This document shows positions 1,453 to 5,036 of a stretch of DNA of 64,000 nt, piece by piece. The translations under genes were made by a program, and so were the position numbers. Numbering within the stretch: position 1 is the first letter of the stretch; each line of letters begins with the position of its first letter. The notes beneath the pieces are model-generated. The model made no database searches, was not told where the DNA came from, and saw only the letters and a list, made by a program, of their open reading frames with translations. Source of the stretch: Candidatus Limnocylindrales bacterium (GTDB lineage: Bacteria > Chloroflexota > Limnocylindria > Limnocylindrales > CSP1-4); contig JBBQDL010000006.1 in the NCBI GenBank assembly GCA_038319665.1, forward strand, positions 2,967 through 66,966. Reading direction: 5' to 3'.

Positions 1453-1470
1453 CGTCTTTGCGCAAAGACG
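1453..1470. promoter_or_regulatory. Perfect 18-bp palindrome CGTCTTTGCGCAAAGACG, candidate parS-like site 1
   Basis: Perfect inverted repeat in a short intergenic gap; near-identical copies at 3052 and 4568. Confidence 0.6.
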
Positions 1471-1484
1471 GTCCGCCCGCCCTG

Positions 1485-3029
1485 TCAGAGCGGGATGTTG
1501 CCATGCTTCTTTCGCGGGTTGACATCGCGCTTGCTGGCCAGCATCCCGAGGGCGCGGATCAACCGGGGCCGCGTCTCCGATGGTCGGATGACGTCGTCGA
1601 CATAGCCCCGAGCTGCGGCGATGAACGGGTTCGCGAACTCCGCTCGATAGGCGGCGACCAGGCGCGCGCGTTCCGCCGCCGGGTCCGCGGCGGCCGCCAG
1701 AGCCTCCCGATGGATGATGTTGACGGCACCCTCCGCGCCCATCACCGCGATCTCCGCAGTCGGCCAGGCGAAGTTCATGTCGCCGCGAATGTGCTTGCTG
1801 CTCATGACGTCATAGGCGCCGCCATATGCCTTGCGGGTGATGACCGTCAACTTCGGGACGGTGGCCTCGGCGTAGGCATAGAGCAGCTTCGCGCCGTGGC
1901 GGATGATGCCGCCATGTTCCTGGTCGACGCCCGGCAGGAAACCCGGCACATCGACGAACGTCACCAGCGGCACATTGAACGCATCGCACGTCCGGACGAA
2001 TCGAGCCGCCTTGACCGACGCGTCGATGTCGAGCGCGCCGGCGAGGACCTCGGGCTGCTGGGCGACGATCCCGACGCTGCGGCCGGCGAGTCGGGCGAAA
2101 CCGACGATGATGTTCTGCGCCCAGCCGGGTTGGATCTCGAGGAACCCGCCGTCGTCGACGATGCGCCGCAGGACGTCGTGCATGTCGTATGGCATGCGCG
2201 GATCCTCGGGGACGACGTCGTCCAGTGCGGGATCCATCCGGTCGCTCGGGTCAGATGTGTCCATGATGAATGCCGCGGCCAGGTTGTTCTGCGGCAGATG
2301 GCCGAGGAGCGCGCACGCCGCGTCGAGGGCGCTCGCTTCGTCGGGTGCCGCGAGATGTGCGACACCGCTGCGCGTCGTGTGCGTCGTCGCACCGCCGAGG
2401 AACTCGGCATCGACATCCTCGTGCGTTACGGTCTTCACGACGCCGGGACCGGTGACGAACATATAGCTCGTCCCCTCCACCATCACCGTGAAGTCGGTGA
2501 TGGCCGGCGAATAGACGGCGCCGCCGGCACAAGGACCGAGGATGACCGAGATCTGTGGCACGACACCGGATGCCAGGACGTTGCGCAGGAAGATCTCGGC
2601 ATAGCCACCGAGCGAGACAACGCCCTCCTGGATGCGCGCGCCGCCGGAATCATTCAGGCCGATGATCGGCGCTCCGACCTTCATCGCAAGGTCCATGACC
2701 TTGCAGATCTTTTCGGCATATGCCTCGGACAGCGAGCCGCCGAAGACCGTGAAGTCCTGGCTGAAGACGAAGACGGTCCGCCCATCGATCTCGCCATGAC
2801 CGGTCACGACACCATCACCAAGGAACGACTCCGTGGCCGAGGCGTCGCGGTTGGTGACGAACGCGTCGAGTTCGACGAATGTCCGCGGGTCCAACAGCAA
2901 CTCGAGCCGTTCGCGCGCGGTCAACTTCCCGGCCTCGTGCTGTTTGGCGACCCGGACCTCGCCACCGCCTTCTCGTGAGGCGAGGCGCATCCGCTCGAGG
3001 TGCTCGAGTCGCTCCGCGTTCGTCGACAC
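1485..3029 (-). CDS. pccB: Acyl-CoA carboxylase carboxyltransferase (beta) subunit
   Basis: 514 aa with [37 protein letters not shown] and C-terminal [17 protein letters not shown] upstream. Confidence 0.93.
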
Positions 3030-3051
3030 GCTGTGGACTCCTCATCCGGCC

Positions 3052-3067
3052 GTCTTTGCGCAGGGAC
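3052..3067. promoter_or_regulatory. GTCTTTGCGCAGGGAC, candidate parS-like site 2
   Basis: 14/16 match to the palindrome core at 1454-1469; lies between pccB and parA. Confidence 0.55.
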
Positions 3068-3111
3068 AGTCCCATCATAGCCACCCGAAGGCGTCCCCTG
3101 ACGACGTGCGG

Positions 3112-3154
3112 ATATCCACAGATTCGGTGAATAACTCACAAAGCGTGTGGATAA
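3112..3154. promoter_or_regulatory. DnaA-box cluster
   Basis: TGTGGATAA 3146-3154 is a perfect reverse TTATCCACA; ATATCCACA 3112-3120 has one mismatch; GGTGAATAA 3126-3134 is reverse TTATTCACC. Confidence 0.75.
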
Positions 3155-3253
3155 CCGGGTCACGGAATCGGGTCTTCGGGCGTACCATGGCGATACACGC
3201 TCCCCTCCCATGACGGCCCCGAACCGTCGTCCAGATTCTGAGGTGATGCCCCG

Positions 3254-4024
3254 GTGACGAATGTGATCGCGATCGCCAACCAGAAAGGGGGCGTCGGCAA
3301 GACGACCACGGCGATCAATCTCGCCGGGGCGCTCGCCGAGGAGGGGTATCGAGTCCTGTGCGTCGACATGGATCCACAGGCGAACCTCACCGCCGGGCTC
3401 GGGATCAATCTCAACACTGTCGAATTGTCGATGGCCGACGTCCTCGCCGACGGACGCTCGACGCTGACCGAAGTGATCCTGCCGACGGAGACCGCGGGGA
3501 TCGACGTCGCACCCGCCCACATCGACCTGGCGTCGACGGAAGGTGAACTGTTCACCGCTCTCGGCCGCGAACAGATCCTGCGCGAAGCGTTCGAAGGGCA
3601 GATCGATACCTACGACTACGTCCTGATCGATTGCCCGCCGAACCTCGGACTGCTGACGGTGAATGGACTCGTCGCGTCGAGCGGCGTGATCATCCCGGTG
3701 CAGACGCAGTACTACGCGATGAAGGGCCTCAACAATCTGGTCAAGGTCATCAACGCGATCCGACTCAAGCTGAATCGCGACCTCAAGATCCTCGGTCTGC
3801 TTCCGACGTTCTTCGATGGCCGGACCAACCTCGCCCGCGACATGCTCGATGAGCTACGCGTCGTCGGCGACCACCACGTCTTCGCGAGCATCGTGCGAAC
3901 GACTGTGAAGCTTGGCGAGGCACCCCTCGTCGGGCGACCCATCACGACCTACGCCGGCGCCAGCGACGCCGCGCGGACCTATCGCGCACTCGCCCGGGAG
4001 GTGATCGACCTTGGCCCGAACTGA
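3254..4024 (+). CDS. parA: ParA/Soj partition ATPase
   Basis: Deviant Walker [29 protein letters not shown]. Confidence 0.95.
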
Positions 4025-5036
4025 CTTCCGCGCCCAGGCCGCGCGGCGGCTCTCCGAGGACACGGAGCTCTCCCCCGCCATCGTCAGCCTGCTCACGCCC
4101 GACAGCCCGACCCGCTCGATCGGGGTCCGGATCGTCCAGGTCGATCACATCGAGCCGAACCCCGAGCAGCCGCGCATGGTCTTCGAACAATCCGCGCTCG
4201 ACGAGCTCGCGGCCTCGATCCGCGAACATGGTGTCCTCCAGCCGATCCTCGTCCGCCCGCTCGGGCCGAACACCTATCAGATCGTCGCAGGTGAACGCCG
4301 CTGGCGGGCATCGCGCCAAGCGGGTCTTGCCACGATCCCGGCGCTGATCGAGGACATCGACGACGACACGGCGCTCGAGATCGCGATCATCGAGAACCTC
4401 CAGCGGGAGGACCTCACACCACTCGACGAAGCGGCGATGTACGACCGGATGGTCCACGAACACGGCTATAGCATCCGCAAGCTGGCCGACAAGCTGGGCA
4501 AGGACAAGGGCTACCTCGAGAACCGGCTGCGGCTGGCGGACGCCCCGCCGGAGATCCGCGAGCTCGTGTCTTTGCGCAAGGACAGCCTGTCGCACGCCTA
4601 CGAACTGATGAAGGTCGAGGATCCCAAGAAGCGGCGCCGTCTCGCGCAACAGGTCGCCCGGGGCGAGCTGACCCTCATCAAGTTGCGGGACAAGATCGAG
4701 GGCCGGCGGTCCCGACCCGAGCCCGTCGCCGGCGAGGCGGCCGAAACCGGCCCTGCGACTGTCGCTCCCGCGGCTCCGGACGACGAGGCCGATCGCGACA
4801 ACCTGTGGGCTTCCGGAGATGCCCCGCCGCGGGACATCTCGGACGACTCGCTCGTCAACGCGAAACAGAGCCTTGTCGACGCCGTCGACGAACTGGTCGG
4901 GGTGCTGGGCAGCGCGCAGGTCCGCGAGTCGATCGGCGCGACCGACCGGGCGAACCTGGCCAAGTACCTGACGATCGCGAAGCTCCGTCTCGAGAACGCG
5001 ATCGCCCTGGTACGGAGCGACGACGCCGGCTACTAG
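4011..5036 (+). CDS. parB: ParB/Spo0J family CTPase DNA-binding protein with divergent HTH and C-terminus
   Basis: [32 protein letters not shown] motifs; overlaps parA end. Confidence 0.93.
4568..4583. promoter_or_regulatory. GTCTTTGCGCAAGGAC, candidate parS-like site 3 inside parB
   Basis: 15/16 match to the palindrome core; codons there (TCT/TTG in reading the site) are AT-rich relative to the rest of the gene. Confidence 0.55.

Follow-up and report, generated by a model that had tools for sequence, protein, structure and literature searches.

ParAB2, a second ParA/ParB pair of Limnocylindria with a candidate palindromic site of its own

The closest described relatives of the system considered here are the chromosomal ParABS systems (ParA/Soj, ParB/Spo0J and their site parS, TGTTNCACGTGAAACA), the ParB paralogue Noc of Firmicutes with its site NBS, the partition systems of secondary replicons, and KorB-OB of plasmid RK2, a sliding repressor that depends on cytidine triphosphate (CTP). 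ParB and Noc are the textbook case of how DNA-binding specificity diversifies. Here, we have analysed a window of 64,000 nucleotides (G000:C6:2967-66966) of a metagenome-assembled genome of a soil Candidatus Limnocylindrales bacterium, G000 (2,553,685 bp in 77 contigs, 69.7% G+C, 81% complete), which holds a parA-parB pair, ParAB2, together with three copies of a 16-bp palindrome. We consider it likely that ParAB2 is a second, class-wide ParA/ParB pair whose ParB2 reads this palindrome as its own site and forms a partition-type complex there; we infer the link between ParB2 and the palindrome from their proximity, conservation and co-occurrence.

Like a chromosomal ParABS system, the locus has a deviant-Walker-A ParA that is translationally coupled to a ParB_N/HTH_ParB protein, and a few 16-bp palindromes are clustered round parAB, one of them inside parB. 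Unlike such a system, its half-site GTCTTTGC matches TGTTTCAC at 3/8 positions (by eye), ParB2 reads D172/Y204 for S172/R204 (residues 170-204 are numbered throughout as in Caulobacter ParB) and has neither LG(K/R)GL nor a Pfam ParB_C match, and ParAB2 lies 0.76-1.9 Mb from dnaA in relatives, with a canonical ParAB1-parS system on the same chromosome. With Noc, ParB2 shares the character of a ParB duplicate that has acquired a putative new palindromic specificity via positions 173/179/184/201. It differs in the residues found there (K/R/D/S, not Q/K/K/R), in lineage and in site sequence. It also has its own adjacent ParA2, whereas Noc is an orphan with an N-terminal membrane-targeting helix, and three clustered sites, whereas those of Noc are many and dispersed. 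In the secondary-replicon systems (Vibrio cholerae ParAB2-parS2 and the replicon-specific ParABS of Burkholderia), a second ParAB likewise reads a different palindrome, orthogonally to the origin system, but here both systems stand on one contig in 5/11 genomes examined. KorB resembles ParB2 in being a ParB-fold clamp with palindromes in promoter regions (Foldseek 8qa9_B, TMt 0.73). However, ParB2 scores 19.4 bits against Pfam KorB, below the cut-off of 22.3, no KorA-like partner was seen, and ParB2 is chromosomal with an adjacent ParA. As judged from sequence, ParAB2 would work like ParABS but lacks the canonical ParB features (R173/G201, S172/R204, the ParA motif, parS and origin proximity) as well as those of Noc.

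In the literature on Chloroflexi/Limnocylindria ParB, non-canonical parS, ParB paralogues and dual ParABS, we found no description of ParAB2 or of the palindrome; subscription journals and supplements lay outside this search, and those of PMC7383237 and PMC12704722 may list rare variants. In the Limnocylindraceae genomics paper PMC13212565, words that begin with ParB, parS, partition or segregation do not occur.

The palindrome and its conservation with parAB2

The first-pass annotation of this DNA had reported three copies of GTCTTTGCGCAAAGAC with zero, two and one mismatches, and our search reproduced their positions exactly (sites ii, iii and iv; Table 1). At up to three mismatches the window holds exactly these three copies, while in shuffled sequences the mean count was 0.08 and the maximum one, with 0/100 reaching three. 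At up to two mismatches they are the only copies in the whole assembly, all within 3.1 kb, and two strings with three mismatches occur elsewhere in it. Scored with a weight matrix built from related sites (maximum 34.5 bits), the three sites reach 32.8, 30.8 and 23.5 bits and the next best string of the assembly 11.0. In related loci, the bases flanking the palindrome extend its symmetry to 18 bp (Y...R).

The relatives compared comprise the genus of G000 (g1), a sister family (g2; genomes of 1.0-1.4 Mb) and a further family of the same class (f3; genomes of 2.0-2.7 Mb). We used 80 oriented loci of the g1/f1 type, with ParB2 65-95% identical, and 21 loci of a distant Limnocylindrales clade, with ParB2 52-64% identical (tblastn). 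All 41 of 41 g1 genomes carry the motif at up to two mismatches, in 2-9 copies each (reversed-pattern control, 0-1). The gene order accC-pccB, parA2-parB2, ubiA is kept in the 80 oriented loci, all of which (80/80) have site iv. Among the loci whose flank reaches that far, 75/75 have site iii. Site ii is found in 65/80; 14 of the other 15 end short of the position and one (L090) is without it. The gene parA2 adjoins parB2 in 78/80 f1-type loci, the other two being cut within 360 nt upstream of parB2, and does so in 21/21 distant-clade loci, 5/5 f3 loci and 9/19 inspected g2 loci.

For the phylum at large, we sampled 151 Chloroflexota genomes. Those with ParB2-type proteins (E<=1e-55) are exactly the 15 of class Limnocylindria (f1 4/4, including G000; f2 1/1; f3 10/10), and 0/136 others have one. 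The motif at up to one mismatch is present in 13/15 carriers and as single matches in 2/136 others, the control pattern giving single matches in five genomes. Of the two remaining carriers, G214 has three sites with two mismatches at the usual places and G037 (g2) has none. ParB2 and the palindrome were not found together in the 136 other Chloroflexota genomes sampled.

Site iv, which lies in coding sequence, bears on how the element is selected. In 79 parB2 sequences, the codons beneath it are V186 GTG in 79/79, L188 TTG in 77/79, R189 CGC in 79/79 and D191 GAC in 79/79. Third-position entropy over 154 equally conserved amino-acid columns averages 0.91 bit, and codons outside the site vary (four codons for R183, CTG/CTC for L185). 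Several of the codons used are rare in G000: TCT makes up 2.1% of Ser, TTG 5.5% of Leu and AAA 6.5% of Lys in a table of 1,238 long open reading frames kept at a third-position G+C of at least 0.8, a filter that favours G/C endings. The two variable positions are coupled, with TCT+AAG in 46 sequences, TCC+AAA in 33, and TCT+AAA and TCC+AAG never, and on a FastTree tree the coupled switch occurred at least five times. As a result of this strict coupling, each in-gene copy retains one GTCTTTGC and one GTCCTTGC half-site, which could reflect a balance of site strength against codon or mutation pressure. The in-gene site is absent wherever VSLRKD is replaced, that is in g2, in the distant clade and in one f3 locus. 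Since the codons under the site are rare and near-invariant, the codon pattern shows that selection on site iv acts on the DNA and not on the protein alone.

The same sequences bear on whether the palindrome could act as an RNA hairpin in the spacers between cistrons (for processing, attenuation or control of translation), as a perfect inverted repeat just before two start codons might suggest. We find this scarcely credible: the stem would have only 6 bp with a GCGC loop, it is the sequence and not the pairing that is conserved (33/79 in-gene copies are C-A mismatched on the mRNA strand), compensatory changes were not observed, and copies stand in both transcriptional orientations and also between convergent genes.

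A further question is whether the palindrome belongs to parAB2 or to the neighbouring carboxylase genes. It might be an operator at which an unrelated transcription factor controls the propionyl-CoA carboxylase/methylmalonyl operon, and conserved gene order alone would then explain why it is near parAB2. Site ii precedes the accC start by 11 nt and site iii the pccB start by 22 nt, a fourth site lies beyond accC in 11/62 loci, the carboxylase-parAB2 synteny is old, being present in f1 and f3, and g2 has neither pccB (with the query used) nor the motif. We nevertheless regard such an operator as highly improbable, and the invariant rare codons beneath the in-gene site are the first point that speaks against it.

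The second is the distant clade. Fifteen of its carboxylase-bearing loci have a single strong site, at the accC/pccB junction or close to it; one further carboxylase locus has no site of at least 10 bits, and its flank does not reach the junction. The first-pass annotation had named tracking of the carboxylase genes by the motif in relatives as evidence against its reading, and here the outcome is in its favour: four loci with no adjacent carboxylase (L155, L157, L161 and L172) retain a site of 28.8-32.7 bits, three of them as perfect 16-mers, at -928 to -966 from parB2 and ~170-200 nt upstream of parA2. In the genomes of these loci (G069-G072), pccB was not found at E<=1e-60, and each genome holds four copies of the motif; the pccB-bearing G073 holds five. 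A short locus, L174 (3.7 kb, no carboxylase within), has an in-gene site only.

The extra copies of the distant clade are orthologous between genomes. One, in trpD (position 3001 of L176, L181, L182 and L187), codes LSLRKD, with S-L-R-K-D as in parB2 of G000, one stands ~100 nt into a menC-like gene that follows a UbiA gene, and one, intergenic, separates a thiamine pyrophosphate (TPP)-enzyme gene from a convergent GNAT gene. These are not operator positions. In G000 itself, a 3-mismatch string at C8:65538 was considered as a trpD relic, but its translated frames are unlike TrpD (by eye) and it was treated as chance.

The f3 loci also argue against an operator. Sites ii, iii and iv are laid out in them as in f1, but a tRNA-Met (CAT) gene (L189:6745-6820, minus strand) lies between pccB and site iii, so that site iii is uncoupled from the pccB start codon; it precedes parA2 by ~130 nt, and a DnaA box and a TATCAT/TATGAT element lie next to it. 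Finally, the neighbouring genes that were scanned included no regulator family; two small open reading frames (5871-6236 and 7027-7551) have no Pfam match. Taken together, the comparison of these loci shows the palindrome to be a selected, locus-specific element that travels with parAB2 across a class.

The genome of one relative, G029, has nine motif matches and a second accC-pccB-parA2-parB2 locus with palindromes (L053, G029:C13:1075-14082), whose genes match in broken pieces. This copy could reflect frameshifts, a decaying duplicate, a strain mixture or an assembly artefact.

The recognition surface of ParB2 and its putative contact with ParA2

ParB2 is a member of the ParB family by sequence and predicted fold. 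Its matches in the PDB are Noc, ParB and Spo0J (E 6e-43 to 1e-31), with Noc chains the best (E 5.8e-43), and its CTP-binding boxes GERRWRA (within AGERRWRA) and ENLQRE (within ENLQREDL) are intact and align with the Noc, Spo0J and ParB chains. An AlphaFold2 model (predicted local distance difference test, pLDDT, 78.9) places an N-terminal helix at residues 6-17 ahead of the ParB_N and HTH domains; residues 235-271 are a disordered linker and 278-339 a C-terminal helical hairpin (pLDDT 85-89), the last in a protein that has no Pfam ParB_C match. Compared with a chain of the Caulobacter ParB-parS complex (6t1f_D), the model gives a Foldseek TMt of 0.77 and a root-mean-square deviation of 3.4.

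It is the DNA-recognition surface that departs from the known types. According to the accessible part of PMC7383237, Q162, G170, K171, S172, N178 and R204 are contacts conserved across ParB and Noc, R173 and G201 are invariant among ParB orthologues, the Noc specificity set is Q173/K179/K184/R201, a basic residue at position 179 is permissive, and natural chromosomal specificities dissected at residue level number only two, parS and NBS. The first-pass annotation, from a gapless manual alignment, had placed K/R/D/S at 173/179/184/201. An ungapped HMMER alignment of ParB2 residues 141-229 with chains of Noc, Spo0J and ParB gives the same assignment, as does a MAFFT alignment of 152 sequences. 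ParB2 is therefore without both R173 and G201 of canonical ParB, reading K173 and S201, and without the Noc set. The re-coding is also wider than these four positions, with S172 changed to D, A177 to E and R204 to Y, while G170, K171 and N178 are kept. If ParB2 does read the palindrome, this third natural specificity (K173/R179/D184/S201 with D172/Y204, and a candidate site differing at 5/8 half-site positions) would be a new end-point for the ParB/Noc field, and the pair would offer another orthogonal combination for DNA labelling of the ParSite/mParSpot type, as far as the accessible text on that method describes it.

A wider set of ParB-like proteins from outside Limnocylindria also has K173/R179 with T or S at 201 (GKGKGYIExRLRL...RPDTLTHAREI; P0033, P0034, P0038, P0042, P0051, P0060, P0067, P0068, P0072 and P0082); one cluster member is named Chthonomonadales. 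A larger family of non-canonical ParB specificities may exist.

How ParB2 might contact ParA2 is suggested by its N-terminus. The ParA-binding motif of ParB is defined as (L|F|I)G(K|R)G(L|F|I) in the part of PMC12704722 available, and this string was not found in the 341-aa ParB2 translation (by eye). In its place, an A(R/K)xDFRxxAAxRL peptide is present in 18/18 inspected ParB2 with an adjacent ParA2 (g1, distant clade and g2a), and unrelated sequence replaces it in 6/6 inspected g2b loci, where ParB2 is an orphan; in f3 the N-terminus is a variant, ASKRPAFxxNIHRLF. Since the peptide co-varies with the presence of ParA2, we read it as the putative ParA2 contact. Predictions of a complex of two ParA2, two ATP and ParB2 residues 1-40, made with two alignments, scored 0.02 and 0.21 against a mark of 0.32 and weigh neither way.

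Two ParAB systems on one chromosome

Genome G000 has two ParB genes. Contig C17 bears the second one, with the gene order rodA-PBP2-mreD followed by parA-parB-gyrB-...-gyrA. Two canonical parS sites (core GTTTCACGTGAAAC) stand at C17:29045 and C17:29246, 200 bp apart and directly upstream of parA1 (span G000:C17:29045-29261, or L003:9546-9762), and they are the only two canonical parS in the genome. ParB1 reads R173/T179/E184/G201/R204 and has a GLGRGL motif and a Pfam ParB_C match (1.4e-11). The C17 parA-parB-parS is the ordinary partition system of this genome and accounts for its canonical parS; with this system beside gyrB, the pair in the window is therefore a second, paralogous one. The first-pass annotation had seen here a probable ParABS system with a non-canonical parS, a reading that is incomplete, as this pair is not the ordinary ParABS of the genome with an altered site. 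Its statement that the window has no further copy and no canonical parS holds; canonical parS was not found on contig C6 at up to three mismatches, but the genome does have the two sites on C17. NBS was not found in G000 at up to three mismatches.

Both ParB types are present in 36/36 g1 genomes and 24/24 g2 genomes. Of the 11 genomes examined for position, six have them on separate contigs, and since the other five carry both on one contig (Table 1), a separate replicon for ParAB2 is not indicated. In these five relatives, ParB1 lies 21-42 kb from dnaA, and ParB2 lies 0.76, 0.77, 1.31, 1.43 and 1.94 Mb from it. The ParB2-dnaA distance is ~35-40% of the rounded genome size in four genomes (2.1-3.8 Mb) and 36-59% in G065, depending on direction. 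In the assembly of G000, dnaA is on C37, ParAB1 on C17 and ParAB2 on C6. GC skew in twenty 20-kb samples along the 3.128-Mb contig G065:C2 is noisy (-0.040 to +0.020), with no clear switch. On G000:C17, skew in 10-kb bins flips from +0.03 to -0.04 at ~30 kb, the position of parS1/parA1; this flip may not mark an origin, because gene orientation switches there too.

To explain these observations, we propose that ParB2 dimers would recognise the 16-18-bp palindrome YGTCYTTGCGCAARGACR ('parS2'). At each of its three copies, which follow one another at intervals of ~1.5 kb along accC-pccB-parA2-parB2, they would form closed CTP clamps and from there spread across a ~5-kb patch, and ParA2 would act on the resulting complex. 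This complex would be invisible to ParB1/ParA1, giving two orthogonal partition-type complexes per chromosome, one beside dnaA and one 0.76-1.9 Mb away. Because the control region shared by the divergent pccB and parA2 contains site iii, this second complex would probably also autoregulate parAB2 and damp the carboxylase operon.

DnaA may act at the parA2 promoter as well. An inverted pair of DnaA-box-like nonamers precedes parA2 (Table 1), one of them a perfect copy of TTATCCACA, which we take to be the DnaA-box consensus. In the region upstream of parA2, one perfect box is present in 68/75 loci and two boxes with at most one mismatch in 66/75; one box is found there in 5/5 f3 loci (four perfect, one with one mismatch) and 5/6 distant-clade loci. 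In the whole assembly of G000 there are only five perfect boxes, one of them near dnaA on C37. That the pair is conserved and perfect boxes are rare suggests DnaA control of parAB2.

It is possible, though we remain doubtful, that the arrangement goes further and amounts to two orthogonal ParABS centromere-like systems on one chromosome. One would be the canonical system beside dnaA. The second, with a new parS and with R173/G201 replaced, would be kept at a roughly constant relative distance from dnaA throughout the class and would segregate or position a non-origin domain, the DnaA boxes tying it to replication initiation. With a partition-type locus kept class-wide at such a distance from the origin, one may ask what a centromere outside the origin region would do, the more so as one sub-lineage has kept ParB2 and lost ParA2. 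Of the initial proposal of a third specificity with the palindrome as its centromere, the first half is supported, in that the recognition surface is that of neither ParB nor Noc and the palindrome is selected and tied to parAB; the centromere role is an interpretation only.

Several observations weigh against a compact partition complex built by ParB2 on the palindrome. The positions of sites ii and iii would, as described above, also fit an operator. In the distant clade one site is near parAB2 and the other 3-4 are on other contigs or 215-390 kb away, unlike a compact centromere. All carriers of ParB2 are kin, so that its co-occurrence with the motif amounts to one evolutionary origin. The exception is g2. 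Here ParB2 retains the helix GKDKGY[IV]ENRLRL...DTISHAYEL, with A, H or D at position 184, and VSLRKD is replaced, for example by VAERSD. The motif at up to two mismatches was not found in four of five g2 genomes, and the fifth has one stray match with two mismatches. The expectation of the first-pass annotation that a ParB with this recognition helix co-occurs with the motif thus breaks down in this family. Weak relics stand upstream of parA2 in 5/9 g2 loci that bear this gene (4.3-13.3 bits), and a sixth (L039, 7.5 bits) lies inside the parA2 match. The carboxylase is not adjacent to parB2 in g2 and pccB was not found with the query used, so that loss of the motif coincides with loss of the carboxylase. 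A g2-specific site was not found by a weight-matrix scan of 19 loci or among shared perfect or near-perfect palindromes of 14-16 bp, and a degenerate pattern derived from the relics was rejected as such a site, as it matched in 1/5 genomes. In 10/19 g2 loci parB2 stands alone, and three g2b genomes (91-93% complete) keep ParB2 without ParA2, their sole ParA being ParA1-like (42% identity). In these genomes ParB2 would have a role independent of ParA2.

These exceptions bear on whether ParB2 binds the palindrome for a main purpose other than segregation. It could be a CTP-dependent sliding regulator or insulator, as KorB is, or an organising or positioning factor like Noc, with ParA2 an accessory that some lineages dropped. 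The orphan ParB2 in 3/3 searched g2b genomes, the replaced N-terminal peptide in such loci, the dispersed sites of the distant clade and the absence from ParB2 of the canonical ParA-binding motif, as defined in the available part of PMC12704722, all agree with this, as does the placing of site iii in a divergent control region beside an ATCATAG element and a DnaA box. We think it unlikely, however. The 3' end of parA2 overlaps parB2 by 14 nt and the two genes adjoin in most loci, the N-terminal peptide co-varies with ParA2, and a group of three to four sites spread over 3-5 kb about parAB is typical of a partition locus. A simple sigma-70 scan of 1380-3300 gave no promoter either. The conserved ATCATAG beside site iii resembles a TATGAT-like -10 element on the pccB strand when conserved columns are read by eye, and with no promoter from the scan, the geometry of an operator depends on that reading. 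A partition-type complex of ParB2 with ParA2 therefore stays our preferred interpretation.

Neighbouring genes and feature coordinates

Table 1. Features of the ParAB2 locus (window coordinates) and positions of dnaA and both ParB genes in five relatives
Feature	Position	Strand	Remarks
parA2	3254..4024	+	ParA/Soj-type ATPase, deviant Walker A KGGVGKT; Pfam AAA_31 1.1e-61, CbiA 4.8e-29
parB2	4011..5036	+	341 aa; Pfam ParB_N 1.1e-36, HTH_ParB 1.3e-17
ParB2 N-terminal peptide	4014..4052	+	candidate ParA2-interacting helix, in place of canonical LG(K/R)GL; lies in predicted helix 6-17
ParB2 re-coded recognition stretch	4497..4607	+	aa 163-199, ending DSLSHAYEL; D172, K173, E177, R179, D184, S201, Y204
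site ii	1454..1469		perfect GTCTTTGCGCAAAGAC; in 42-nt spacer from carboxyltransferase stop to biotin carboxylase start, 11 nt before accC start
site iii	3052..3067		GTCTTTGCGCAGGGAC, 2 mismatches; between the divergent pccB and parA2, upstream of both starts (22 nt from pccB, 186 nt from parA2)
site iv	4568..4583		GTCTTTGCGCAAGGAC, 1 mismatch; inside parB2, codes V186-S-L-R-K-D191
DnaA-box-like inverted nonamer pair	3112-3120; 3146-3154		ATATCCACA; TGTGGATAA (minus strand, perfect TTATCCACA); parA2 starts ~100 nt downstream
pccB-like acyl-CoA carboxylase carboxyltransferase	1485..3029	-	Pfam Carboxyl_trans 2.7e-193; flanked by sites ii and iii
accC-like biotin carboxylase	3..1442	-	Pfam CPSase_L_D2, Biotin_carb_N, Biotin_carb_C; cut by window start
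UbiA-family prenyltransferase	5042..5809	-	next after parB2
G030, contig C1	dnaA 1.238 Mb; ParB1 1.273 Mb; ParB2 2.550 Mb		
G065, contig C2	dnaA 1.110 Mb; ParB1 1.068 Mb; ParB2 3.051 Mb		3.128-Mb contig
G067, contig C4	dnaA 1.938 Mb; ParB1 1.897 Mb; ParB2 0.507 Mb		
G107, contig C2	dnaA 1.741 Mb; ParB1 1.762 Mb; ParB2 0.969 Mb		
G095, contig C7	dnaA 0.777 Mb; ParB1 0.756 Mb; ParB2 1.534 Mb		

The carboxylase operon extends upstream of the window (L134:233-3044, G000:C6) with genes for a biotinyl carrier (BCCP), a methylmalonyl-CoA mutase and a glyoxalase-fold, epimerase-like protein. The carboxylase and these upstream genes are a propionyl-CoA/methylmalonyl-CoA pathway cluster.

A different perfect palindrome, GTGTTTGCGCAAACAC, with outer GTG/CAC for GTC/GAC, was not found in the assembly of G000 at up to two mismatches. 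It occurs once per genome in four relatives of the genus, on other contigs (G034:C137:14927, G025:C364:225, G061:C151:4635 and G015:C4:69349).

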